This document shows positions 6,512-46,433 of a stretch of DNA of 64,000 bases, in pieces. Made by a program: the position numbers and the translations under genes. The stretch spans positions 160,001 through 224,000 of the forward strand of contig CAVSIV010000006.1 in assembly GCA_963728205.1 (NCBI GenBank). The letters run 5' to 3'. Source of the DNA: an uncultured Chloroflexia bacterium. Lineage in GTDB: Bacteria > Chloroflexota > Dehalococcoidia > UBA2979. The notes under the pieces were generated by a model. It made no database searches. It was not told the origin of the DNA and saw nothing but the letters and a program-made list of their open reading frames with translations. Every line of letters begins with the position of its first letter. The stretch's first letter is position 1.

Positions 6512-9500
6512 TCAGCCCCGGTCGTCCGCCTCGTCCAGCGCGAGGTCGGCGCCGTGCCGCAGCGTCCGCACGGCCACCGCCTTCGCCCAGGCGAACCGGC
6601 GCGGGAACCCCGGCTCGCGCGGCTGCGGGCCGTCGAGCGGCGAGAGCAGCGCCTTGAGCGACCGCTGCCGCGGCGCAGTTGGTCCCAGCCGCCGGTAGAC
6701 CGCGTCGGCCAGCGCGCCGGCGGCGTCGGTCGCGACGAACGCGACGTCCGGCGACTCGGCGAGCGTGAGCAGCGCGCCCGGCGCGTCGCCGGCCGCGGCG
6801 AGCGCGCCCGGCGGCGCGCCGGCCTCGCGCAGCGCGTCCACCACCGGCGCCAGCGCCGGCGACGCGACGACGCACACCGCGTTGCCGGCGAGCAGCGGCG
6901 CCGCCAGCCACCACGCCGCATCGGCGCCCGTCGCGTGCACGAGCCCGAGTCCGCGCGCCGGCCCGAAGCGCAGCTCGTTGTGCTGGCCCGCGACCGGCAG
7001 CGTCGGCAGCGCGCGGTCGAGCTCACGGCGCGCCGACTGCGCGGCGTCGAGCAGCCGTCCCGCCGCCACCGCCTCGCCGCGCGCGCCGAGCAGCGCGGCG
7101 GCGCCCTCCACGACCGCGACGCGACGCTCGAACGGGGCGTCCCATCGCTTCGCGAGCTCCGCCGGCAGCGCGGCGGCGACCGGCGCGGTCGCCGCCGGCC
7201 CGGCGCCCGCGGACGGATCGCCCGCGTCGGCGGCGTCGGCCCGCCGCGTGAACGCCCACAGGTAGTCTGGCCCGCCGGCCTTCGGCCCGGTGCCCGACAT
7301 CCACATCCCGCCGAACGGCTCCACGCCGACGCGCGAGCCGGTGATCGACCGATTCACGTAGATGTTGCCGGCCTCGAGCGCGCGCACCGCGCGGGCCACC
7401 GTCCGCGGGCTGCGCGAGAACACGCCCGCCGTCAGCCCGTACTCCGTCGCGTTCGCCAGGCGGTACGCCTGCTGTTCGTCGTCGAAGGGCACGAGCAGCA
7501 GGATCGGCCCGAACAGCTCCTCGGTGGCCGTCGTCCCGCGCGTCGCGCGCTCGGGCGGCAGCGTCGACGATCAGCGGCGCGAGGTTCAGGTTCTCGGCCG
7601 CCGGCGAGGGGCCGGTGAAGCGGTCGAGCAGCACCTCGCACTCGCCCCGCGCGCGGTCGGCGGCGGCGAGCAGCCGCATGTCGCGTCGCGGTCGATCACG
7701 GGGTTCACCTGCGTCGACGGGTCGTCGGCGCGCCCGACGTGCAGGCTGCGCGCGGCCTCGACCAGCCGCCGCCGCAGCCGCGCGAACACCGGCCGCTCGA
7801 CGTAGACGCGCGACGCCGCGGAGCACCGCTGGTTCGCGTGCCCGAACGCCGACGCGAGGATGCCCGACACCGCCTCGTCGAGGTCGGCGTCGGCGAACAC
7901 GATCACCGGGTTCTTGCCGCCCATCTCCGCGACGAGCGCCTTCACGCCCCCGCCGGGCGCGCCCGGCGTGCCGCCCCCGGCGAGCTCGATGCCGGCCACC
8001 GTCGCGTGCAGCGCGGTGCCCACCGCGCGCGAGCCGGTGAACGCGACCATCGCGACCTCCGGGCTCTCCGCCAGCGCGGCGCCCACCGTCTCGCCGCGAC
8101 CCGGCAGCCACGTCACGACGTCGCGCGGCACGCCGGCCTCGTGCAGCAGCGCGACCAGCCGCCCGGCGATCAGCGGCGTCTGCTCCGCGGGCTTGAGGAT
8201 CGCCGTGTTGCCGCACACCAGCGCCGCGCTCGTCATCCCGCACGGGATCGACAGCGAGAAGTTCCACGGCGGGATCACCGCGACGACACCGCGCGGCGCC
8301 AGCGCGTCGCCGTGCCGCGCGAACAGCGCCGCGGCCTGCATCGCGTAGTAGCGAAGGAAGTCGATCGTCTCCTCGACCTCCGCGTAAGCGGCTGCGCGGT
8401 CGCGACCGCCCTCGTGCACGATCCACGCCGCGAACGTGTGGCGGCGCTCCCACAGCAGGTCCGCCGCGCGGCGCAGCGCGGCCGCTCGCTGCGGGGCGGG
8501 CGTCGCGGCCCACGCCGGCAGCGCGGCGCCGGCCACGGCGATCGCGCGCGCCACCCCCGCGCGCCCCGCGAGCTCGACCTCGCCGATCGGCGGCCCGTCG
8601 GGGTGCGACGGGCTGTGCACCGCGACCGTCTCCGCCGCCGGCTCCCGCTCGCCGACGATCACGAGCAGCGTCCGGCCGCCCCACTCCGCGCGCGTCGCCG
8701 CGAGCGCCGCCTCGAACGCCGCGCGGTGCTCGGCGCGGAACCACGGCGCGGACGGCGCGCGCTGGAAGTCGCCCGCGTCGCGCGGCTCCTCGGGCGGCTC
8801 CGGCTCGCCGTGCGGCGGCGGCCGCAGCAGCTCGTCGTCCGATACGCCGCTGCGGCTCTGCAGCAGGAACCCCGCCTGCGACGAGTTCTCGAGCACGCGC
8901 CGCACCAGGTACGCCATCCCCGGCAGCAGCTCGCCGACCGGCACGTAGTCGCGCGCCACCCAGCCGAGACGCGCGAGACCCTCGCTCATGCCCTCGGCGG
9001 TGCGATAGAGCGTCTGGTGCTCGAGCGCCGCCGCCGGCAGCCCGTGCGCCTCGGCCAGCGCATGCGCTACGGCGTGCGACCGGGCGTTGTGGCTGCCGAC
9101 CGCCAGCCGCAGGCTCGGCCACGCGCCGAGCAGCACCGGCAGCACGCGCTCGAACTGCGCGTCGGTGTCGCCCTTGCGCGCGAACACCGGCGACGGCCAC
9201 TTCGCCTCGCGCGCGACAATCGTCTCGTAGTCCCAGTACGCGCCCTTCACGAGCCGCACCTGGAACGGCGCGCCCCGCTCGCGCGCGAAGTCCGCGACCG
9301 CGGCGGCGTGCGTGTCGGCGTCGCGCAGGTACGCCTGCACGACGACCCCGGCGCCCTCCCACGCGCCGAACCGCTCGCCACGCCCGAACGTCGCGCGGAA
9401 CACGTCCCAGGTGAGGTCGCGGTAGGCGTACTGCTCCATGTCGACGGTGATGCCGACCCCGGCGTGCTCCGCCGCCTCGCGAATCGCCTCGAGCGCCGGT

Positions 9501-10145
9501 CGCACACGGCGCACGGTCCCCTCCGGGTCGACCGGCGTGAACAGCGACGTCAGCGAGGTGAGCTTGAGCGACACCTGCAGCTGCGCGACGCCGCCGGCCG
9601 TCACCTGCCCCGCCTCCGGCCGGCCGCCCAATTGCTCGAATCAGCCGCAGGTACGCCTCGACGTACGCGCGCGCCTCGGCCTCGCTCAGCACCGCCTCGC
9701 CGAGCAGGTCGAACGACGGGTGCCGCCCCGCCGCGGCCAGGGCGTCGAGCGTGCGTGCCACGGTCGCGTCGCCGGGCGGCGTGATGAAGCGCCGCGCGAA
9801 CACCTCCGCCGACCGCCGCGCCGTCTCGCCGACCACCGCCGCCGGCAGGCGGTCGTCGCGGCCGATGCGCAGCAGCCAGCGCAGCGCGCGCGGCAGGCCG
9901 GGGAAGTCGTCGCCGAAGTACTCCTGCGCGAGGCGCTTCGCCTCCTCGCCGCCGCGGTCGTAGTCGAGCGAGGCAAGGACGTCCATGTAGCGCAGCAGGC
10001 GCGTGCGGAAGCGGTCGTCCGCGACGGCGCGCGTGAGCAGCCAGTCCTCGATGCGCTCGGCGGCGCCGGGCCGGTACGCGCGCGCCGCGTCGAGCAGCAG
10101 CCGCCCGACGGCCTGGGTGCGCGCTTCCGTGTCGTCGTCCGCCAC
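6512..10145 (-). CDS. putA: Bifunctional proline dehydrogenase/P5C dehydrogenase, split by frameshifts
   Basis: FDLLGEAVLS, VDME, VRLVKGAYWDYE, AYLVRRVLEN, PWNF, EMGGKN, QRCSA, YGLTAG distributed over ORFs 7023-10262, 7586-9631 and 6512-7492. Confidence 0.88.
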
Positions 10146-10378: not shown

Positions 10379-11396
10379 ATGGAATATCGCAACCTCGGAC
10401 GCACCGGGGTGAAGGTCAGCCCCCTCTGCCTCGGCTGCATGATGTTCGGCGGCCGCACGACCCCGGACGACTCGTACGCGATCATCGACCGCGCGCTCGA
10501 CGCCGGCATCAACTTCATCGACACCGCCAACGTCTACAGCCGCGGCCGCAGCGAGGAGGCCGTCGGCGAGGCGCTCAAGCGCAACGGCAAGCGCGACCGC
10601 GTCGTCCTCGCCACGAAGGTCCACGGCCAGCATGGACGACGACGACCCGAACGCGCAGGGGCAATCAGCCGCCGCCACATCATCGAGCAGTGCGAGGCGA
10701 GCCTCACGCCGCCTGCAGACCGACTACATCGACCTCTACCAGCTCCACCGGCCCGATCCCGACATCGCCGATCGACGAGACGCTGCGGGCGCTCGACGAC
10801 CTCGTGCGCGCCGGCAAGGTCCGCTACATCGGCACGAGCACGTTCGCCGCGTGGCAGGTCGTGGAGGCGCTCTGGGTCGTCGAAGGAGCTCGGGCTGAAC
10901 CGCTTCGTCTGCGAGCAGCCGCCGTACAACCTGCTCGACCGGCGCATCGAGCGCGAGCTGCTGCCGATGGCGCAGACCTACGGCATGGCGACGATCCCGT
11001 GGAGCCCGCTCGCCGGCGGGCTGCTCACCGGCAAGTACCGCCGCGGCAACGCCGCCGCCCGAGGACAGCCGCTACGACGCGACGAGCAACCCCATGCGCC
11101 AGCGCCGCATGAACGAGCACGTCTTCGACGTCGTCGAGGCGCTGGAGCCGTCGGCGCAGGAGAAGGGCGCGACGCTGGCGCAGTTCGCGCTGGCGTGGGT
11201 GCTGCACCAGCCCGGCGTCACGAGCCCGATCATCGGCCCGCGCACGATGGAGCAGCTCGAGGACAACCTCGGCGCGCTCGAGGTGGAGATCACGGACGAG
11301 GACCGCGAGCGCATCGACCACGCGTCGGCGCCCGGCCGCACGATCGCGCCGTTCTACGAGGCGCCGTTCGGCCCGCACCCGCACCGCGTGCTGTAG
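10379..11396 (+). CDS. Aldo/keto reductase, split by several frameshifts
   Basis: [54 protein letters not shown] in alternating frames. Confidence 0.88.
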
Positions 11397-15960: not shown

Positions 15961-16410
15961 CTAGATCGGTCCGTGCACGCGTCGGCGCTCGTCGCGCGGC
16001 TGCTCGGCCACGAAGCGCTCGATGCGGTCTTGGGGAAACTCGTCGCGCGTGGTCGCCAGCAGGCGGCGCGTCCACACCGATGGCAGCCGGCGCAGCTCGG
16101 GGAACTCGCGACGCAGGATGCCGGCGGAGTAGCGCTTCAGCCGCTCCGCGATCGTCGCCGGCGCCAGGTGCGGCGGCGCGTCCACCGTCACCACCACGTA
16201 GTCCTCGCCGCTGCGCACGTGCACGACGCGCGCACCGATGCCGCGTGCCGCCTCCGCGAACAGCTCCTCGGCGCGCTCGAGCAGCGCGCCATGCAGGAAG
16301 CGCTTGCGACGGCGCGTCGGCCAGACGAGGTAGTAGCGCAGGTCGCCGACCGCGTCCGTCTCATAGACGGAGCGGTCCGTGAACGGAACGTCACCGGCGG
16401 GGTCGGACAT
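15961..16410 (-). CDS. IS200/IS605 TnpA (Y1) homologue lacking catalytic residues
   Basis: LRYYLVWPTRRRK, PP..A...LK..S..LRREFPEL..LPSVWT match TnpA; the HUH site reads DYVV and the YxxxQ site reads FVAEQ. Confidence 0.85.
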   Translation of the reverse strand: MSDPAGDVPFTDRSVYETDAVGDLRYYLVWPTRRRKRFLHGALLERAEELFAEAARGIGARVVHVRSGEDYVVVTVDAPPHLAPATIAERLKRYSAGILRREFPELRRLPSVWTRRLLATTRDEFPQDRIERFVAEQPRDERRRVHGPI

Positions 16411-16416
16411 CGCTCC

Positions 16417-36318: not shown

Positions 36319-36671
36319 GGCGGTGGCCTTTCGTGAGCGCCGCCCCAGCGGAGCGAGCGAGGGCGCGCCGCGACAATGCGGCCCTCAGGCGCGAGTGTCC
36401 AGGCACGTGCATGCGAACCGGCCACCACGACGGCTCACGGCGGCGCGACTCGAAGCGATGAGCATTGGTGCAAAGAGGCGACCGTCGGTCGCATGGGGCT
36501 CTCGCGAGCGGAAGTGACCACGCGCCGCTGACCGGCTCTCACTAAGCGCCAGAGGCGCGCCAGCTTAGCCACGTCCTACGCGCAGAGCAGGCCGCTGTCG
36601 ACCGCGCGTCTCGCGCGTCCTGGTCTAGCGTCACCATTTCAAGTTGGCGATTCGCGCCTGGATATGGCGAA

Positions 36672-37132
36672 TTAGATGACTCGCCCGTGCAGGCAATGTT
36701 TCATCGTAACCGTACGCCTGAAGCCCTTCGCTTCGCGCTGAGAGTATCTGGTCAACCAAGCGAGCAGTCGTCCTATCCAACTCTGTCGCGCTGCGATCAA
36801 TTTTAGATTATCAATGAACGGCCCAAACCAATGGTCGAGTTCGCCGTACATACGTTTGTGGATCTCGCTCCACCATTGTTCGCTCACTGTCGTGCTCGTC
36901 CGCTTCGCAACGTCGAGTTCCAACGCGGCGTTGATGAGAAAGTGTGTCCACGAAAATTGGGCCTGAAACATCGCAACAATGGTGCGACGGCGGTCCTCGG
37001 TCCGGATTCTGCGCGCGCTCCTGCCGGCGCAACCAGTAAGAAGCGACCTCCCCGCCGAACGTGCCCAGCAGACTTGCACACCCGAGCAGCAGCAGCGGCG
37101 GCCGCGATCGCGACGGTCAACGTGTCGCTCAT
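36672..37132 (-). CDS. Lower-GC hypothetical protein with probable N-terminal anchor, frameshifted
   Basis: MSDTLTVAIAAAAAA joins the C-terminal part of ORF 36672-37307. Confidence 0.3.
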
Positions 37133-37431
37133 CGCCGCGGAGCGTACTCCAGACGACGTAATGAGACGAACGTCGGGAGCAGGCAAAGTCCCACTTCAGC
37201 GCGACCCTCAGGCAACTCGCCCGGTCGTCCTCGCTACTTCGCTGACTGCAAAACCGGGCGCAGCCCCCGCTCCGCTGGCAAACGGGATGAACCCTAACGA
37301 CGACCAACGGTTTCGCGTGTTCGGTTTGTGGTGGACGCTTTTGAGGCGCGATAGAACACCCTGTCGCTCCGGAACACGTCGACTCCGACCGGTGCTGCTG
37401 AGAGCGCCACTGCGAGCAGGAGAGAGCGTCA

Positions 37432-37950
37432 TCAAGCCCCGGTATGCATACCTTCGATTAACTCTTCGATCGATTCTTCCCATTCACGCAGTGTGCGTCC
37501 GTCGGATACAGATCTCCCGTATGTAGAGAACGCCATCCGGTCACCATACGCCCCGGAAACTTTACCGCGAATTCTGAGTGCAGACTTGCGTATGCTGGCG
37601 ATTGGGTGCCTTGTCTCTATTCGACGCAGCGCGTGGACTACGTCACCAGGGCCGTGGAACGTTGGCGTCGGCAATTGGTACGTATCGTAGTCGAAATCGG
37701 CGCCGTGTAACTCCTCGCGTGCTCGGTACTCGAGCCATTCCGCAATGTCAGTCGGCGGACTCCGATGGCAGCCTCTTTCGCGGGCACGGTTCGCCGCTTC
37801 TTCTCGCCGCCGCCGTCGCTCCTGCGAGCTCACTCTTTCGCTCGAGCACCCACTCTTTAGCGAAGACAATCGCCTGGTTTACCGCGCCTGCGATGAGCCC
37901 AGAAGCTCGCGCCGACAAGTGCCAACTCGCGGGCCTGAGAGATTTGCTCA
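37432..37950 (-). CDS. Lower-GC hypothetical protein (boundaries uncertain)
   Basis: Globular-looking segment IAEWLEYRARE...EELIEGMH preceded by a hydrophobic and charged stretch in a neighbouring frame. Confidence 0.3.
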
Positions 37951-38495
37951 TCGCTATCCTGTTCTTCCGCCCCATCGCGATCTTCTTGATCTGCTTGGCG
38001 TCGAGGTACACGCCCTTCAATTCCCAGTAGTCGAACGTCAGTCGTACGAGAGAGAAGAATGTTAGCAGCGTCCAGATGAACAAGAACCATGCGACGCCAA
38101 CCGTGAGACGAAGCCACAGCAGCATGCTCTCCCACACGCAGGGGCTGGCGATCACCGCGGCGAGTCCCGAAGAAGACGTCATCAGGGCCAAGCCCGCGGC
38201 GAGCGTAAATGGGAACGCGTGCTCCGCGAGTCCTTTCCGATTCGTTCGCATGAACACGAACAGGCTCGCTCGGGGAGGAATGTCAGCAACAACGCAAAGA
38301 CAGCAATGATGATGCCCAACAGCGCGGTCGCCACTCCGACGACAGCAGTCTCGTAACCGTCGAAGGCGCCGGCTAGCCGGCGACAGGGCACGAGGAGGGA
38401 GATTGCCAGCGCGGAAAGGACCGCGGCTGGGAAGGCCACGTCGACGAAGATATTCTTCTCTGCTCCCAGAAGAGCCGCGCGAAGTGCGGAGTCAC
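37950..38495 (-). CDS. About 4-TM membrane protein, frameshifted (3' end uncertain)
   Basis: ORFs 38182-38439 and 37748-38257 together give four hydrophobic helices. Confidence 0.45.
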
Positions 38496-38501
38496 GTGTT
38501 T

Positions 38502-39332
38502 CTAGTTCTCAGCGGCCTGTTGGGTGTCCGGAATCGTGTCGAGCAACCGGTGGGCGAGGGCCTCACCTGTCTCCTCGGCTGGCCGGTCGATAGGGATGAT
38601 CACGTCGGTCAGTGACGTAGTTGTAGACGCGTCGCTCGCCGGCGGAGCTGGCCCTGCGCCTTCACTCGGCCGTAACGATGCGCATAAATGGAGAGGTCCT
38701 CCAACTCGGTGTCGCTCACCTGAAGGGACTCACCGGCGGGAGCCACTGCCGTCACTAGCACGGACTTGGCTTTCCAGTGTTCGAGGAAGTCCTTCGCGGT
38801 TTCAGAACCCTGCGGGAAGTGAGGGTTCGGCAGGTGGAAGGAGACCGTGACTCGCGCTACCGAGTCGACCTCTTCCAACCACCGCTCGAAGTCTTGCTCA
38901 TCAACGAGGAAGTCCACCGTCAGCCCGAGGACCTCGGAGAACGTCTCGTTAAGAATTCCTCGGAACCGAGCCCTGATTGAAGCGACTGTCAATGTCCGGT
39001 AGGTTTCCTCGGCCGCGATCCGCCCGTTTTCAAGGTTGATCGCATAGTGTGTGAATGACGCATGGCCTTCGGTGCCGGGAAGGATTTCGAAGTCTTCCGT
39101 CTCTTCGTTGTACACCGAGGCGCTTGATTCTCTCTCGTAGCCAATCCGACCCCACAACGCGTTCCGGTCCTGCAGGACTGATGGCCGCGACAGGCGCCAA
39201 TGCCTTCGGTAGTATTCGGGCCGTAATGGACGGGGCCAGCGCCCCTGTGATGGCCTGGCGAAGGAGAATATTCTGACCGGGACCGTTCGGCTCCTGAGTG
39301 ATCTGTAGCAAAACAACGCGACGTCTCGCCAT
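38502..39332 (-). CDS. DUF4747-like protein, frameshifted
   Basis: GGAGG RBS; WGRIGY, SFHLPNP, IYAHRYGRVKAQG; family call by eye. Confidence 0.45.
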
Positions 39333-39691
39333 TGACCCCTCCGGCATACGATGCCGGGCGAACTTAGCACGATTACGCCTGCGTGAGGACGTCAGACAGC
39401 CACATCGGTCAGCGCGATCGGTGGAAGCACGACTCCCAACTGTTCCTCCGAACATCCTCCACGAGAAAGGACACCACCATGCCGCACCCTCCGCATTCCG
39501 ATTGGCCGGCGGCCTTTGGCGACCCGCGCGCGACCCGACGCAATCGCGGCCGCGCTGGCGTCGTCAAGATTCATCGATAAGAAGGACGAACGGGCGGACA
39601 CCGAGCGAGGGGAATCGCTCATCGGCTACGTGGGTGAACCCGCACGGGCACATCCCGATTGAAGCTAAGGGGACCCAGTGAAGCGAGGACA

Positions 39692-40600
39692 TCAAGAGCC
39701 GTGTGCCTGCATCAGCACGGCCAGCGCGCGGTGATTCCGATCGAGGGGCTCGGCTGCGGTCTCGACGAAGGCCGCCGCGCGACCGCGCACGCCGTCGATG
39801 CCACCGGCGTTCCGCAGCAGGTCGACGAGTGGCGGGTTGAGCCACTCGGACTCCGGGGCGGCGCGCTGCTCGGGTTCGACGCCGTCGGAGATTCCGTTGG
39901 CGCGTGCGAAGAGACGGGCGCGGATCACGAAGGCCACGAGGCTGCCGGGGTCGGGCAGCGACGCCACGTTCAGATCGTGGTGCGCGATCGCCTCACAGAG
40001 TGCGGGCGGGAAGTTCCAGTGGGTGGCGAGCGCGGCGCCGAGGTCGGCGTCGGTGTAGCCGAGGATCACCTCCTCGGCGCGGACGACGGGGATTCCCTGG
40101 GCCGCGGCCATCTGGCGGGCCGAGGCGAGGGCCCCGGGGCGGTGCTGATCGAGCGCGAGACGGCCGATGTTGTGCAGGACGCCGGCGGTGAACGCCTCGT
40201 CGAGGTGCTGCCGGCGGGCCCTGGAGAGGAGTTCGGCGAGCACGCCGACGGTGACCGAGTATCGCCAGAACCGCTCCTGGTCGACGTCGCCGGGGCCGTG
40301 CATCGTGTCCATCACGCTCGAGGCCAGCGCCGTGGAGCGGATGGTGCGGAATCCCAGCAGCACGACGGCGTCGCGCACGGTGGTGATGCGGCGGGGGAAG
40401 CCGTAGTAGGCGGAGTTCGCGAGGCGCAGGATCTTGGAGGTCAGCGCCTGGTCGCTGGCGATTGCGAGGGCGAGCTCAGGAGCGGAGAGGCGATCTTCGC
40501 CGGCGATCTGGAGGATGCGCACGGTGACGGCCGGCAGCGGGCGGAGTTCCCCGATCTCGGCAACGAGCTCATCGAGCGCCGGGTGAGCGGCCAACGACAT
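39692..40600 (-). CDS. HDOD domain signalling protein
   Basis: LRPLP, DQALTSKILRLANSAYYG, AVVLLG, AGVLHNIG, HWNFP. Confidence 0.92.
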   Translation of the reverse strand: MSLAAHPALDELVAEIGELRPLPAVTVRILQIAGEDRLSAPELALAIASDQALTSKILRLANSAYYGFPRRITTVRDAVVLLGFRTIRSTALASSVMDTMHGPGDVDQERFWRYSVTVGVLAELLSRARRQHLDEAFTAGVLHNIGRLALDQHRPGALASARQMAAAQGIPVVRAEEVILGYTDADLGAALATHWNFPPALCEAIAHHDLNVASLPDPGSLVAFVIRARLFARANGISDGVEPEQRAAPESEWLNPPLVDLLRNAGGIDGVRGRAAAFVETAAEPLDRNHRALAVLMQAHGS

Positions 40601-40733
40601 CCCTGCTGCCTGTGCCGTCGCTCACTCCTCGCGTCCGTGCGGTAGAGCTTGTAGGAAGAGGGGAATGCACCGCGGGGTGAAACGCCTGCCAGGGCCGGTA
40701 GTAGACAGACGTTTCACCCCGCGACGCATTCAG

Positions 40734-40770
40734 TTTCAAACCGGCGCCGCTCGCGGGTGGGCGGCGCCGG
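40734..40770 (-). terminator. Hairpin terminator after the small peptide gene
   Basis: CCGGCGCCGCCC-n6-GAGCGGCGCCGG followed by TTTG on the minus strand. Confidence 0.55.
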
Positions 40771-40780
40771 AATCGTGCTG

Positions 40781-40897
40781 TTACATGCCCCAGATGAAGA
40801 CGCCGAACGTCCCCAGGTGCATAACAATCGCGCTGCCGATAACAGCGGCGCCCACGCCGTACTGAAGAAGCTTGTCCACCGATAGAAGCTTGGCCAC
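40781..40897 (-). CDS. Small hydrophobic peptide, 38 aa, MAKLLSVDKLLQYGVGAAVIGSAIVMHLGTFGVFIWGM
   Basis: GGAGGA 8 nt before GTG; TAA followed by a hairpin; shares VFIWGM with 46296-46433. Confidence 0.72.
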   Translation of the reverse strand: MAKLLSVDKLLQYGVGAAVIGSAIVMHLGTFGVFIWGM

Positions 40898-40944
40898 CGA
40901 CCCGTTCCTCCACTAACTCCCGCCTCTGCAGTCGGGATGCTGTG

Positions 40945-40979
40945 AAACTAGGAACGAGGTTCTCGCCAAGCTCTCGCCA
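40945..40979 (-). promoter_or_regulatory. Putative activator-dependent promoter of the peptide gene
   Basis: TGGCGAGA direct repeats with 11-bp period, then TAGTTT 10 nt downstream. Confidence 0.45.
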
Positions 40980-41081
40980 CACCCCGTAGGCCCTCTTAAA
41001 TCTGATCAAATCTATGAGTCCCTGGCCGGAGCGCGGGCCAGTCCCCCACGAAGAATCGGCGCGAGAGGCGCGGATTAGCAG

Positions 41082-44000
41082 TCAAACTCGGGGGATCTGG
41101 AGCCTCAAGCTGTCGAGTGCTGCGCCAGAAATCACGCGGGCGTACTCCGACTGGACGGCCGCCGACGGCTCCTCCCCGAGCTCGTCCCTCAGCGCATCGT
41201 GATACCGGCGGTATACCCGCGCGGCTAACTCCAAGTGCCCACCACGGGAGTGAGCCTGCATCTGATAGCGGACTGCATCTTCGTTCAACGGGTCGATCGC
41301 AAGAATCGAATCCGTGAGGACAATCACCTCAGGAAACTCTGACCGGCGCAGCGCCTGGACGGCCAGTGTGACGAGCGACGCGACGTAACGGTCCTCATAC
41401 TGGCGACGCGTCTCACTTGCCCACTCCGTTTGGAACGGTTCAGCAAACGGCCCGCGGTAAAGCCGAATCGCGGCGAGAACCTCATCGAGCCAACGTTTGC
41501 CGCCCGGTCGTTCGCGCTCGGCAGCCGACATGTGGGTTTCAAATTCGCGAGCGTCGTACGCGATGTCGAACGCGTCGCTTACCTGATATCCCTCGTCCGA
41601 CTGGACGACGATCTGGCGGTCGATTGCCTTCCGCAGCCGGTAGAGGGTCGAGTGGAAGGCGCTGTTGATTTGGTCCTGTGCCGCGTCAGGCCACAACTCG
41701 AGCGCGATTTGCTCCTTGCGCAATGGCCGTCCGGAGTGCAGTAGGAAGAAGAACATCTCCTTGCTGCGCTCGCTTCGCCACTCCAAGTCGCTTACCTGAC
41801 GCCCCCCCATGAGCACACGCGGCGTTCCAAACGCTTCTGCGCGGATCTGCGACGTGGACGCTGGTGTCGTCGGGAAGGCCGGCTCGGCTCCGCGCACTCG
41901 CGGAATCCGGTCTCGGAGGGTCTTGAAGTAATCACCGCCAGCTCGACGAGCCACGGCGAACTCGACCAACTCAATATGTTGACGCGCTTCGACATAGAGG
42001 AACTCGTCATAGCCAACACGACCCGCGAGATTCGCAACCTGCTCGAGCTCCTGCACCGCGCGGCTGCGTTGCCGGTTGGCGAGGTGGGCGGCCGCCAATC
42101 GGAGCCTCGCAATCGCCTCCTCGCGGGGTTCTTCTGCTTCGCGGGCATCAGCCACGGACTGATTGAGGACGCTAGTCGCAGCCTCGATCCGCCCTTCCGC
42201 GAGAAGAACCGCGCCGAGCGCGCTCCTGAATTGAGCACGAAACAGCAGCATCCCCCCCTGTTCAGCCGTTCGCAGCCCGTGTTCGAGCAGGGAACGCGCG
42301 CGGGTCAGTTCCCCTTGCTCCCGATACACCAGCGCAAGGCCCAAAGTCGCACCCATGATTAACGGCGGGTCATCGATGTCCTGCGCGGCCTTGAGAGCCA
42401 GGGTCCGAAGAGAGGCAGCAGTCTGCAGTCCCCCAGATCGTGCTCCACGGCAGCGAGGTTCTCGTGGCCATAGGCTTCACCTCGTGCGTAGTGCAAATCC
42501 CGCGACCGCTGGATCACGGCGTTGAATGTGTCGCGAGCCGTCTCAAGCTCGCTCATGATCTTTTGCAACTCGCCGATGTTGCCCATCGTCGTCACTTGTT
42601 GCCTGAGGTCTCCGACCGCGCGCCATAGCCGCTGGGACGTCGTGAAGGCCTTCATCGCACCGGCAAGCTCACCGGTGTACCCGAGGCAGTCTGCCGAGCC
42701 CGTCGTAGCATTCAGCGGATCGGTGCTGATCGCCCAACTCCTCGAAGGCACGGGCTCCCCGTTCGAAGTTCTCGCGTGCCCGGTCGAACAAGCCGCTGAC
42801 GCCGAGAGCGATGCCTTCTTCCAAGTCGAGTTCGGCATGAACTTCGGGTTCGTCTACGGACTCCCGCGCAATTCCCCTGGCAGTCCGGCACGCCTCGAGC
42901 GCGTCCGTCAACCGACCCAGATGCCGCAAACCGACAGAGCGATATATCTCGCGTTTTACCTGCTGACTCGGGCTAAGACCGCGCTCGTCCACCGCTTCGA
43001 GCGTGCGAGGCCGCGGTGTCCCTCGCCCGATTTGAGAGCGTGCCGAGCGCGAGCCAAGGCGAGTTCGGTCTCCGAACGCAGCACGTCTTCGGGTAGCCGG
43101 TCCAGCCACCCGACAAGGGTCGACCATTCACCCCGCTGATAGAGCTCGTCACGCAGGTCTAGTATTTCGGGGACAGCCTCCGACCAATCCTTAGCATCAA
43201 GTGCCATCTCAACCGCTTCCCGCCGCATGCCGCGCCGGGCGTACAGGGCAGCAGACGATCGGCGGAGTTCCAGAATCCTCTCCGGATCCTCACGCTCCAT
43301 ACGCGACACCAAGTGCTCACGGAGGATGGAATGGATGCGGTACCAGTTCCCGTCCTCTAGTCGAACTATCAGATGGGTAGCGCGCTCTACGCTCACGCAA
43401 TCTCCGAGCAGCATCACTGTGTCCGCTCAACTCTCGGACGAGGGGCACGTCGAATGACTGCAGTACCGCGCAGGACTCGAGCAGGTCGAGCTGCTCGCTT
43501 GCGAGCCGCGCGAGCACCTCCTGATCGACAAAGTCCGCGAGGATGAACTCTGACGCTGAGGTGTCGCTGGGCCGCGTAGGGTCCGCATGTTCGCCAAGAA
43601 TCGCAAGTGCCGCCGCCCACCCATCAGCTCTGCGGATCACGGATGCCTGGGCAACACCCTCGGTGACGCCAAGCACCCGTAGCAGTTCCAGTGCTTCGTC
43701 GTCGGAGAATTGCAGATCGCGCACGGTAAGGCTCAGCGCCCTCCGCTGGGCAGTGAGACGGGGGAGGGAGGGAAGGAGCGTCCACGAGCGCGTCAAAACA
43801 ACCAGGCGCATGCTCAACGGCAAGCCCTGAGCCAGGGTATCGAGCAGCTCGAGCGCGGCGTCGGCTCCCTCAAGCGCGTTCAAGTCGTCGACCACGAGGA
43901 TGAAGAGCTCATCCACTGACTGGTGGATCACAGCGGCGAACTCAGACACGAGCGCGCTCGGGTCGGCCCGTTCGCCAACGTTCTCCAGACGTTCGGCAAA

Positions 44001-44305
44001 TGCCTGAAGCTCGTCCGGCGCGATCCCGCGCACTGCGCTCGTGAGGTTCGCCAGGAGCGCTAGCGGGTCGCGATCCTGCCGGTCGAGTGACAACCAGCAC
44101 GCGGGCAACCCAACCTCGGCGAGCCAGTCAACCGCCAGCGTTGACTTTCCGTAGCCCGCTGGTGCGCTGACGACGATCACGTCGTGCTCGAGCGCGTCGG
44201 AGAGGATGCGGTGCAAGCGGTCGCGGCGAATCGTGTCTGCCCGCCGACGCGGAGGCGTCAGTCGGGCGAACTACTCAAGAACTTCGGTGGGCGCTTCGCA
44301 GTCAT
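41082..44305 (-). CDS. Large MalT-like ATPase/TPR/winged-helix/BTAD transcriptional regulator, multiple frameshifts
   Basis: APAGYGKS, WLSLD..DRD, VVDD, DGWAAAL, WYRIH, TPR-like helices, LWPD...FHSTLYRLRKA, YRGPF, DPLNE, ELGEEPS. Confidence 0.88.
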
Positions 44306-44436
44306 CGCCAACCCCTCAGGTAACTGTAGGGGTGAAAAATACGGCGCGTCATTACCGGACGGCTCTCAGGGGGGCTGGTGCCCGCGCGCTACCCTGCGCT
44401 CGCCCACTCAGCGCCCCCCGGGGGAAGGATTGCCAC

Positions 44437-46196: not shown

Positions 46197-46295
46197 CGCC
46201 CGCGGCGCGACGCGTACGGGCGGCGGCGGGCGCTGTGGCCGACTGTCGTCCCGCGGACACTTCCCGCGCACCCGAAACCGCGTAGAATCCGGCGC

Positions 46296-46433
46296 ATGAA
46301 CCGACTCGCTCGAGCCTGTACCCACGTCGCCGTTCCGGCGTTCGCGCTCGTCGCGATCGCCGCCGGCGCGCTGCTCGCGAGCCCGCTCGTGTTCATCTGG
46401 GGCATGTCGGCGCAGCGGATGCTGTTCCGCTAG
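46296..46433 (+). CDS. Small hydrophobic peptide, 45 aa, MNRLARACTHVAVPAFALVAIAAGALLASPLVFIWGMSAQRMLFR
   Basis: TAGAAT 7 nt before ATG (leaderless); GC3-rich codons; VFIWGM motif. Confidence 0.68.
   Translation: MNRLARACTHVAVPAFALVAIAAGALLASPLVFIWGMSAQRMLFR

Follow-up and report, generated by a model that had tools for sequence, protein, structure and literature searches.

Within the window, i.e. the 64,000-nucleotide stretch of DNA from an uncultured Chloroflexia bacterium that was analysed here, a regulator gene is followed by a small ORF and an HDOD-domain gene (Table 1). We consider the chances somewhat better than even that this locus belongs to a widespread Chloroflexota module, in which a gene-encoded hexapeptide would drive an autoinducing loop analogous to RRNPP quorum sensing but assembled from unrelated parts. 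Such a loop is suggested by a conserved gene order, by how the peptides are built, by a promoter motif, by domain homologies and by a co-fold that passed its controls. An earlier sequence-only reading of the same DNA had proposed an RRNPP-like pairing of a TPR regulator with a secreted pre-peptide. This proposal is strengthened by conserved small ORFs, similar tails and the co-fold, whereas two of its elements, a second small ORF and a specific link to Opp import, were not borne out. That reading was aware of no description of such a system, and none was found in literature searches either.

Table 1. Features of the locus and of a second VFIWGM-containing ORF (positions in the window)
Feature	Position	Strand	Description
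HDOD-domain protein gene	39692..40600	minus	302 aa, intact; Pfam HDOD 2.8e-54
Long hairpin	40663..40731	minus	26-28-bp arms, 13-nt loop; inverted repeat I6, fold; between small ORF and HDOD gene
GC-rich hairpin	40741..40770	minus	10-bp stem, then UUU; fold
Small ORF (candidate pre-peptide gene)	40781..40897	minus	GTG start, 38 codons + stop; translation ends GVFIWGM
Shine-Dalgarno-like GGAGGA	40906..40911	minus	8 nt upstream of GTG; sequence
Predicted promoter/operator of small ORF	40945..40979	minus	two direct repeats TGGCGAGA and -10-like TAGTTT
Regulator gene	41082..44305	minus	Pfam AAA_16, TPR_MalT, TPR_12, Trans_reg_C and BTAD on pieces
Second small ORF	46296..46433	plus	45 codons, VFIWGM internal; membership in system doubtful

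A conserved small ORF next to the regulator

The start of the small ORF is located 184 nt past the regulator stop codon (41082-41084), on the same strand. This spacing, the 38-aa length, the C-terminus GVFIWGM and the strong ribosome-binding site had all been described previously and agree with the coordinates and the translation (GTG start, GGAGGA read from 40911 to 40906). However, the ORF is not unannotated, as then stated, but was already called in the protein collection as the 38-aa protein P0002. Its translation displays a Lys in the N-terminus, an uncharged core, the triplet T-F-G and the tail VFIWGM, and a search of the protein collection with it returned itself as the sole match.

Small ORFs of such build also accompany the regulator in relatives. 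Among family-level orthologous regulators (48-56% identity), 20 of 20 have one on the same strand within 900 nt, with a charged start, a hydrophobic core, A-x-A and a six-residue tail (EVIWGM, EVIWDL, GVIWPW, EMILPW), and with upstream Shine-Dalgarno sites comparable to that in the window. In the alignment A-x-A is almost invariant and directly precedes the tail; T-F-G of the window ORF occupies the same positions, and its tail aligns with the pre-peptides of 19 relatives (EVIWGM versus VFIWGM). The predicted cleavage sites rest on a hand-written -3/-1 rule, which the relatives fit. Eighteen distinct pre-peptide genes have exactly 33 codons, and the differences among the pre-peptide genes fall most often on the third codon position (1575/1291/1911 for positions 1/2/3). 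Tandem peptide copies occur in loci L018, L021, L025 and L137. On sequence grounds, we regard the window ORF as a positional orthologue of the relatives' pre-peptide genes. The earlier suggestion to look for small ORFs beside homologous regulators has hence met with success across the family (20/20), the class and the phylum, and similar tails were indeed found there, EVIWGM resembling VFIWGM.

A strict pre-peptide rule (22-50 aa in length, an early K/R, 12 or more uncharged residues, small-x-small, a tail of 4-8 residues and a Shine-Dalgarno site) was matched in 35/53 loci on the regulator strand, as compared with 1/53 on the opposite strand and 6/1060 shuffles. Likewise, among 28 further loci from a phylum-wide search, 9 matched on the same strand and none on the opposite strand. 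The lack of a strict match in 18/53 and 19/28 loci, respectively, implies that the pairing is not universal, or that such genomes carry the peptide gene at another site. A 33-position pre-peptide profile gave exactly one strong match (E ≤ 1e-8) in each of 20/98 other family genomes, and every strong match sits just 3′ of a regulator orthologue. Among curated families none covers the peptides, with only sub-threshold matches to signal-peptide-bearing small proteins.

The window ORF itself is atypical. It fails the strict rule, with a His in the core/c-region and a 12-residue stretch after it, and its profile score of E = 1.1e-10 is circular because the window was part of that alignment; a profile built from the 19 relatives without the window did not recognise its leader. 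An ORF this short, lacking a homologue in the protein collection and missed by the non-circular profile, could be a chance open frame in the intergenic spacer, but we regard this as highly improbable. Its placement with respect to a conserved promoter is the one seen in 24/26 loci, it has a strong ribosome site and a tail resembling those of the relatives, and shuffles seldom yield such ORFs (6/1060, see above). Moreover, its GC content by codon position is 0.63/0.37/0.79 in a region with a GC of 0.62.

The regulator gene and its frame breaks

The regulator comprises a MalT-like STAND NTPase with arm, followed by a TPR sensor and a C-terminal SARP output, i.e. an OmpR-type winged helix plus BTAD. 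In the window, segment 41082-42476 matches Pfam BTAD (9.6e-18) and Trans_reg_C (0.0046; 17.5 bits, under the 26.2-bit cut-off). In the intact 1096-aa orthologue of locus L054, residues 38-467 match MalT (NCBIfam 1e-67, at 229 bits and hence under the 537-bit equivalog cut-off; PDB 8bob, 5.9e-31), and residues 830-1089 match AfsR and EmbR (PDB 8hvr, 7.7e-13; 2fez, 3.8e-10), with 8jke and 8k60 as further PDB chains matching the SARP domain. TPR_12 and TPR_MalT are found both on the window pieces and in the L054 orthologue, so that the TPR domain of RRNPP receptors has its counterpart here.

The STAND-ATPase/TPR/BTAD architecture described earlier is therefore present at the level of domains, but the gene is not one open frame. 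Between the ATG at 44305 and the stop at 41082 there are five frame changes, near 44275, 43405, 43010, 42680 and 42440, giving the pieces 44305-~44275, 44270-43320, 43426-42959, 43127-42672, 42853-42362 and 42476-41085. These breaks had been overlooked in the sequence-only reading. The pieces share 46-54% identity with the L054 orthologue, and the NOD piece, including the GYGKST P-loop, 53%.

With its frame broken five times in the assembly, the window copy is either inactive or mis-assembled. That the module here is a decaying and non-functional remnant, with the regulator as a genuine pseudogene and with drift in the small ORF as well as its leader, whatever relatives may do, is a possibility to which we give appreciable weight, if clearly less than an even chance. 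Only two of the five breaks are at G runs, GC and GC3 are below those of the flanks and the relatives (GC3 of the regulator is 0.64-0.78 versus 0.88-0.96 in relatives), the leader is atypical by both the strict rule and the non-circular profile, and the neighbours p226 and p355 of the relatives are missing at the window locus. Conversely, frames are also broken elsewhere in the same assembly: the essential rpoB is spread across three frames, and an aldo-keto reductase gene is interrupted at no fewer than five places. This indicates that indel errors are common, and the breaks in the regulator may be assembly errors as well. Each regulator piece is stop-free in its own frame, and the operator, the ribosome site, the small ORF and the HDOD gene are intact.

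A predicted SARP-type promoter and the downstream genes

The predicted promoter of the small ORF, also overlooked earlier, has its two repeats at 40979-40972 and 40968-40961, with starts 11 nt apart. The second 8-mer is followed by 10 nt (7 nt past its 11-nt unit) and then by TAGTTT at 40950-40945. Exact GGCGAGA-N4-GGCGAGA has a single occurrence in the 4.1-Mb genome. The composite motif of two GGCGAGA-like repeats with 11-nt spacing, 7 nt and TAnnnT was found in 24/26 loci, with no further hit in 544,886 nt, for a pattern that was drawn up after viewing the same sequences. It is positioned past the regulator stop and ahead of the pre-peptide start, and the same layout recurs in distant members of the module family. 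As far as sequence can tell, the motif would thus provide what characterises a SARP target promoter, direct repeats 11 bp apart near a -10 element, and the layout stated in the accessible part of the AfsR paper (PMC10936776) is matched by it.

The two hairpins 3′ of the small ORF fold with an MFE of -76.7 kcal/mol (z = -7.9), and none of 200 shuffles folds equally well. The hairpin terminator previously ascribed to the ORF is supported as a structure, but a consensus scan called no canonical terminator 3′ of the small ORF because only 3 U follow; the shorter hairpin may weakly terminate the small transcript. Strong GC hairpins are found 3′ of the pre-peptide genes of relatives too. The long hairpin is single-copy in the genome, and an Rfam search gave no family above threshold. 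Its loop recurs in loci L095 and L052, where the stem bases differ yet still pair.

The HDOD gene is located downstream of the small ORF, as reported before, and its GC content by codon position is 0.75/0.49/0.90. It follows the pre-peptide gene in 14/20 family loci and is likely a downstream output gene of the module. Like HDOD, a 355-aa protein of no known family (p355) is conserved downstream in relatives.

These data can also be read in another way, with the regulator activating the small gene via the repeats while the peptide is a product rather than a ligand and the TPR domain senses something else. The product could be a secreted hexapeptide serving as, for example, an antimicrobial, a metal binder or a matrix component, or else an uncleaved single-pass membrane micro-protein acting jointly with the HDOD protein. 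The promoter and the gene order fit this account equally well, HDOD and the 355-aa protein are conserved downstream, and the accessible part of PMC10936776 contains no TPR ligand for AfsR-type regulators. Still, no modifying enzyme, exporter or immunity gene was present among the 8 neighbours scanned in L054, and we judge this account unlikely in view of the predicted contacts between receptor and peptide.

Predicted contacts between peptide and TPR domain

Residues 320-845 of the L054 regulator were co-folded with its whole 33-aa pre-peptide, not the mature peptide, using alignments made within this analysis. The resulting score was 0.65 (runs 0.65, 0.02 and 0.69), as compared with 0.02 for the best of three controls; the mark applied is reached by 58/80 solved complexes and 2/110 mismatched pairs. 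The runs share at least 5% of contacts, and the partner pLDDT is at least 33, leaving the partner fold uncertain. The contacts of least error join tail residues 28-31 to TPR residues 527-680, so that in the model the predicted mature tail sits within the groove of the TPR domain. The co-folding of peptide and TPR domain that had been suggested as a check thus speaks for the pairing, with one of the three runs at 0.02.

The predicted contact face combines an invariant T-N-N..N/R/Y/E core with variable positions that track the tail type. Divergence at contact positions, taken relative to that at non-contact TPR positions, amounts to 0.41 for same-tail pairs (n = 7) and 0.77 for different-tail pairs (n = 113), a contrast that is confounded by relatedness and drawn from pairs that are not independent. 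Covariation of regulator and peptide, likewise suggested as a check, is accordingly seen in direction but not separated from relatedness.

Regarding the peptide as product, the failed run (0.02) is in its favour. However, the co-fold puts exactly the predicted mature tail in the groove, well over the controls, and groove residues vary with tail type. In addition, a six-residue product with a fast-changing sequence and one-to-one receptor pairing is typical of signals.

Uptake genes and the second VFIWGM ORF

The window holds three family-5 binding proteins, a permease and an ABC ATPase. The proposal that Opp/Dpp-type genes in the window supply import is retained as far as the presence of these genes is concerned, but the link is unspecific: the genome contains 27 SBP_bac_5 matches, and no importer gene was found among the 8 neighbours scanned around the L054 module, the only relative's module annotated.

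This bears on a further alternative, which we hold to be quite improbable, namely that the regulator senses the tail of its own unexported pre-peptide inside the cell, as a cis-acting feedback on expression or secretion load and with no intercellular signal. Such sensing is in line with a co-fold that passed when the full pre-peptide was used, and with the lack of a dedicated importer gene among the neighbours scanned in L054. On the other hand, the relatives keep A-x-A directly ahead of the six-residue tail and their leaders match secreted small proteins below threshold, which together favour export and cleavage, and the 27 family-5 matches could serve uptake.

The repeat of VFIWGM in a second small ORF is real but amounts to one 16-nt identity with flanks lacking similarity. 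A 16-nt match elsewhere in the window was obtained for 1337/5000 random 117-nt and 204/5000 random 21-nt segments. No homologue was detected in 98 family genomes (best E 0.03), the pre-peptide profile search left the ORF unmatched, and no direct-repeat operator was found near it. We doubt that it belongs to the system and consider it an orphan.

A proposed autoinduction loop

In the autoinduction loop that we favour, the small gene would encode a pre-peptide with a Sec-type signal sequence, which signal peptidase would cut after small-x-small (A-x-A in relatives, T-F-G in the window). The freed peptide would be roughly six residues long, with a high share of Trp, Pro and Gly (VFIWGM in the window), and would accumulate outside the cell and re-enter, probably via an oligopeptide ABC importer. 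Inside, it would bind the concave TPR face of the presumably cytoplasmic MalT-like STAND ATPase, which may then turn on in the manner of MalT with its inducer. The C-terminal SARP domains would bind side by side to the two 11-nt-spaced direct repeats, standing in for a -35 element, and activate the pre-peptide promoter. This would create positive feedback, with the HDOD gene possibly expressed by read-through of the hairpins.

On its sequence features the module seems to represent a novel type of peptide signalling in bacteria other than Firmicutes. More generally, we put at about even the chance that Chloroflexota, including Dehalococcoidia, use Sec-exported hexapeptides as cell-to-cell signals read by a STAND-TPR-SARP receptor. 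If so, RRNPP quorum sensing would have a convergent equivalent outside Bacillota, NOD-TPR-SARP regulators would receive their first proposed class of natural ligand, and pherotypes would arise as receptor groove and peptide tail diversify jointly.

Comparison with known systems

The RRNPP/RRNPPA systems of Bacillota (Rap-Phr, NprR-NprX, PlcR-PapR, Rgg-SHP, AimR-AimP) likewise place a TPR receptor gene beside a short pro-peptide gene, an arrangement seen here, with a predicted secreted pro-peptide, in 20/20 family loci and, under the strict rule, in 35/53. Further similarities are a signal formed by the few C-terminal residues (predicted here), tails as diverse as pherotypes and, in some loci, tandem peptide copies. 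However, RRNPP receptors have an N-terminal XRE-type HTH or a phosphatase, whereas the Chloroflexota receptor starts with the AAA_16/MalT-like STAND NTPase, shows neither the XRE-type HTH nor a Rap-type phosphatase/3-helix effector at its N-terminus, and ends in SARP. It is also longer, at about 1,070-1,100 aa; RRNPP receptors have roughly 300-450 aa. No homology to RRNPP systems was detected, and no RRNPP-specific family was present among the Pfam, NCBIfam and PDB matches of the regulator. The accessible parts of the RRNPP surveys consulted mention neither Chloroflex* nor BTAD.

MalT of Escherichia coli has a homologous NOD and arm with a TPR-like sensor after them (Pfam TPR_MalT), and in MalT an ATP-dependent switch is released once the inducer binds the sensor, a logic that would be expected here as well. 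Its output is a LuxR-type HTH, for which no C-terminal counterpart was found here by Pfam or PDB, and its inducer is maltotriose, as opposed to SARP and a proposed gene-encoded peptide.

The SARP domain is homologous to that of AfsR and other large SARPs of Streptomyces and of EmbR of Mycobacterium. AfsR-type regulators also combine NOD and TPR, and act on promoters with two 11-bp direct repeats near -10 that replace the -35 element, but the order is reversed: their SARP is N-terminal, here it follows NOD, arm and TPR. According to the accessible part of PMC10936776, AfsR is modulated by phosphorylation; the word 'ligand' occurs 0 times there, and no peptide or TPR ligand of AfsR is named.

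Finally, the candidate pre-peptides resemble pro-peptides of the Phr, PapR and NprX type in having a charged start and a hydrophobic core, and in a predicted small-x-small site ahead of a short, putatively active C-terminal part. Unlike in those, only 5-7 residues separate the predicted signal-peptidase site from the stop, so that one cut would yield the mature peptide with no need for a second, extracellular processing step.

Small ORFs downstream of related regulators

Relatives of the window regulator were collected from Dehalococcoidia or Chloroflexota metagenome-assembled genomes, using its C-terminal 464 aa as query. The class search returned intact relatives, mostly open frames of ~1,030-1,190 aa, in 66 of 301 genomes (E <= 1e-20); matches were found in 38 of 99 genomes in the family search (E <= 1e-10) and in 66 of 401 in a phylum sample (E <= 1e-25). 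Downstream of the relatives' regulators, and on the same strand, lie small ORFs with good ribosome sites, whose products begin with a K/R-rich stretch, continue with a core of ~20 uncharged residues and an A-x-A-like site, and end in a 5-7-residue tail, the predicted mature peptide, that is rich in W, P, F and G. The sequence-only reading had proposed searching the flanks of homologous regulators for such ORFs, and with wide flanks one is present downstream in 20 of 20 family-level loci. The 33-residue pre-peptides of the family align well, with Ala nearly invariant at -3 and -1 before the tail (EMILPW, EVIYPW, EVIFPW, EVIWPW, GVIWPW, GVVWPW, EVIWDL, EVIWGM, EVIWGS, GMIWGL, GVAWGT, EVVWHG, EFVYG). 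The window tail VFIWGM aligns with these, T-F-G standing where the relatives have A-x-A. Modules are also present in the single-contig genomes G131 and G316 of 1.7-2.1 Mb (loci L127 and L037) and in a relative assembled in 40 contigs, G212 (L128); the tails predicted at L127 and L128 are WPVATGP and WPVGTCP, respectively. The wide alignment held no conserved stretch usable for a search for related loci; the family alignment was usable.

Some loci show additional features. At L051 (G002:C165) two tandem regulator paralogues lie ~2 kb apart on one contig, with 35% and 56% identity to the C-terminal part of the window regulator. Four loci (L024, L026, L033 and L022) carry, <=700 nt downstream of the regulator stop, repeated small ORFs with the motif RNMIKW/RNAIKW and no hydrophobic core; they adjoin QSPFF-type pre-peptides in one family of the class, and may represent either another type of small product or in-frame reading of a DNA repeat. 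On a contig binned as Phycisphaerales lies a module built almost exactly like those of Dehalococcoidia (L088, QZJT01000025.1; regulator identity 50%, tail EVIWDL, both flanking genes of no known family present); its presence there probably reflects mis-binning and not gene transfer.

A predicted SARP-type promoter ahead of the pre-peptide gene

In 24 of 26 loci the stretch from the regulator stop to the start of the pre-peptide gene holds a SARP-type layout: two (T/C)GGnnAGA repeats with starts 11 nt apart and, 7 nt after the second 11-nt unit, TAnnnT. The pattern, which was written after sight of these sequences, had no match elsewhere in these loci (544,886 nt, both strands). The exact form GGCGAGA-N4-GGCGAGA occurs once in the 4.1-Mb genome, and in distant members the layout is kept and the repeat words differ. 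In the available excerpt of the AfsR structure paper (PMC10936776), SARP targets are described as direct repeats spaced 11 or 22 bp apart, the 3' one lying 8 bp away from the -10 element, and two SARP protomers as binding side by side over the -35 region.

Controls on the pairing

A strict architecture rule (charged start, uncharged core, small-x-small site, short tail, Shine-Dalgarno) was applied to 53 loci, L012 (a duplicate of L054, the locus of an intact 1096-aa orthologue) and L096 (without a full match) having been dropped. Matches were found on the regulator's strand in 35 of 53 loci; on the opposite strand 1 of 53 matched, and of the shuffles 6 of 1060. One of the 35, at L069, is a false ORF, the real ORF of that locus having an unusual start, and leaving out L040, whose genome carries an unpublished flag, gives 34 of 52. 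A His in the core makes the ORF of the window itself fail the rule. The phylum search supplied 28 more loci, among them other classes and low-GC members; 9 of these had a match on the same strand and none on the opposite one.

Twenty other genomes of the family, out of 98, each gave exactly one strong match (E <= 1e-8) to a 33-position pre-peptide profile, and all 20 matches sit directly downstream of the regulator orthologue. The window's match to this profile is circular, the window being in the alignment, and a profile from the 19 relatives alone did not find the window ORF among 1009 frames. Judged from its sequence, the leader of the window ORF thus gives no tie to the family, and the connection rests on position, promoter, general build and tail.

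Regulator identity and co-folding with the pre-peptide

In L054 numbering, residues 38-467 match the NOD and arm of MalT (NCBIfam 1e-67, below the equivalog cut-off; PDB 8bob, 5.9e-31) and residues 830-1089 the SARP domain of AfsR and EmbR (PDB 8hvr, 7.7e-13; 2fez, 3.8e-10), with TPR repeats in between. The regulator thus joins a MalT-like STAND sensor to a SARP output at its C-terminus.

Residues 320-845 of this regulator (alignment of 16 rows) were co-folded with its 33-aa pre-peptide (20 rows), a check of peptide against TPR domain that the sequence-only reading had suggested. The resulting score was 0.65 (runs 0.65, 0.02 and 0.69), as against 0.02 for the best of three controls. Among solved complexes 58 of 80 attain the mark thus reached, and among mismatched pairs 2 of 110; the use of own alignments makes these figures approximate here. 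At least 5% of contacts are shared among the runs, and the partner pLDDT is at least 33. Confident pre-peptide contacts fall in residues 21-33, with least error at 28-31, in the predicted mature tail; those of the regulator are TPR residues 527-531, 564-571, 600-613, 636-651 and 676-687. The model supports, rather than shows, binding of the pre-peptide to the TPR region.

Across 16 orthologues T601, N603, N604, R636 and L677 of the contact face are invariant, and N607, Y640 and E643 nearly so. Its variable positions change from one tail type to the next and mostly agree within a type. The divergence of contacts relative to other TPR positions was 0.41 where the tails were the same (7 pairs) and 0.77 where they differed (113 pairs), a difference that is suggestive only, as the pairs are related and not independent.

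Neighbouring genes

The pre-peptide gene is followed by an HDOD gene in 14 of 20 family loci, and the HDOD gene by one for a 355-aa protein in 15 loci; a gene for a 226-aa protein lies divergently upstream in 13. The latter two proteins belong to no known family, and in the HDOD-bearing clade their genes lie on either side of those for the regulator, pre-peptide and HDOD protein. In the window the HDOD gene is present, with no 355-aa counterpart downstream of it and no 226-aa counterpart. Pfam and NCBIfam returned nothing for the 355-aa or 226-aa proteins, and NCBIfam nothing for the HDOD protein either; in an atlas search the leads for the 355-aa protein were all sub-threshold, and the 226-aa one had none. 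No maturase, exporter, importer or immunity gene was found among eight neighbours scanned around L054, and the lack of the first, second and fourth of these speaks against reading the locus as a RiPP cluster. Elsewhere, the window contains an IS200-like transposase gene (15961-16416, minus; Y1_Tnp, 8.6e-17) and, at 2-1252 on the plus strand, a frame that matches an eCIS core domain (4.1e-11).

Features at and near the module in the window and of flanking genes at L054 (window coordinates unless L054 is given)
Feature	Position	Strand	Basis
Regulator, opening frame	ATG 44305, stop ~44275	minus	short frame
Regulator, homology pieces	44270-43320, 43426-42959, 43127-42672, 42853-42362, 42476-41085	minus	homology to orthologue
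Predicted SARP-type promoter	40979-40945	minus	window sequence
Small ORF, 38 codons, GTG start, C-terminus GVFIWGM	40781-40897	minus	translation
10-bp GC stem then UUU	40741-40770	minus	RNA fold, 3' of small-ORF stop
28-bp stem	40663-40731	minus	RNA fold, 3' of small-ORF stop
HDOD gene, intact	39692-40600	minus	Pfam 2.8e-54
Second VFIWGM ORF	46296-46433	plus	shares only 16 nt with the first
355-aa protein gene	L054 3556-4623	minus	counterparts in 13-15 other loci
226-aa protein gene	L054 9275-9955	plus	counterparts in 13-15 other loci

The window copy of the module

In the window the small ORF starts 184 nt from the regulator stop (41082-41084), with GGAGGA 8 nt ahead of its start. Consensus scans at the small ORF detected neither a canonical terminator nor a sigma-70 promoter. 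The fold 3' of it has an MFE of -76.7 kcal/mol (z = -7.9), equalled by 0 of 200 shuffles. GC is 0.55-0.65 over ~36500-44400, compared with 0.73-0.80 in the flanks. A protein collection queried with the 43-aa stop-to-stop frame returned solely the window's own 38-aa entry, and 60 related genomes gave no homologue better than E = 0.05; by sequence alone the small ORF is an orphan.

The hairpin with the 28-bp stem has an identical 13-nt loop, UCUACUACCGGCC, at the corresponding position in the window and in two related loci (L095 and L052), and the stem bases differ between the three yet still pair. Rfam gave only sub-threshold matches to microRNA-like hairpins, with no family above threshold. 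A repeated REP-like or MITE-like element was ruled out, because the long hairpin is single-copy in the genome; it may be an RNA element governing read-through into the gene that follows. The ~3 kb downstream of the HDOD gene (36500-39690) have the lowest GC of the window (0.54-0.63), and their longer frames have no Pfam match at E <= 0.01.

Pfam places AAA_16/STAND, TPR_MalT, TPR_12, Trans_reg_C and BTAD domains on pieces of the window regulator that alternate between two frames. These are 46-54% identical to the intact L054 orthologue, and each is stop-free in its own frame (GC3 0.64-0.78); two of the five frame changes are at G runs (GGG, GGGGG), the remainder not. What the sequence-only reading had observed at this locus is real, apart from these breaks, which it overlooked. 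They are not proof of a pseudogene, because other genes of this assembly (6 contigs, 89% complete) are broken too: the pieces of the essential rpoB (C6:1074303-1075737 of the own genome) occupy three frames, with 4 TGA codons read through, and an aldo-keto reductase gene in the window (~10380-11396, plus) has at least five frame switches; SecA, by contrast, is intact. A PutA-like gene (window 6512-9640, minus) is also split, and several 600-900-codon frames are intact. The assembly thus seems to carry many indel errors, unevenly spread. In a GC3 phase plot used for counting frame shifts across the window, operon neighbours and shifts were inseparable. The window's copy of the module may be mis-assembled or inactive.

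The second VFIWGM ORF and the Opp/Dpp genes

The sequence-only reading had pointed to a second ORF repeating VFIWGM. Its identity with the first is limited to 16 nt, and it has no homologue in 98 family genomes, no match to the pre-peptide profile and no direct-repeat operator. Of 5000 random 21-nt window segments, 204 have a 16-nt match elsewhere, and the repeat is probably, though not certainly, chance. At 46282-46298 a TAGAAT ends 8 nt before the ATG of this ORF and a Shine-Dalgarno is absent; should the ORF be expressed, its transcript would have no leader or almost none. The Opp/Dpp genes that had been proposed for import are real; lying 17-20 kb away in a genome with 27 SBP_bac_5 matches, they say little about the system.

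Comparison with known systems

Position, exclusivity, promoter, domain logic and the modelled co-fold together support the core of the original proposal, namely that a predicted peptide signal is paired with a STAND/TPR/SARP regulator. In the portions of the literature covered by full-text searching, no published description of a peptide signal paired with a STAND/TPR/BTAD regulator was found, nor one of peptide quorum sensing in Chloroflexota. If the pairing is true, it would provide a candidate ligand type for large NOD-TPR-SARP regulators, and would make cell-to-cell communication experimentally accessible in a phylum that is mostly uncultured, since each locus predicts a peptide, a receptor and a promoter; such triads could also serve as orthogonal peptide switches.

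The regulator differs from AfsR in that its domain order, with the SARP domain C-terminal, is reversed. RRNPP papers, including the surveys PMC9765709 and PMC10075063, present cytoplasmic-receptor peptide signalling, in their available portions, as characteristic of Firmicutes and of the mobile elements they carry; neither the stem Chloroflex nor BTAD occurs in those portions of the two surveys. The predicted workings of the Chloroflexota system are like those of RRNPP systems, but by the membership tests of that family it falls outside it. If true, it would be a second, independently built version, and such signalling logic would have evolved more than once.
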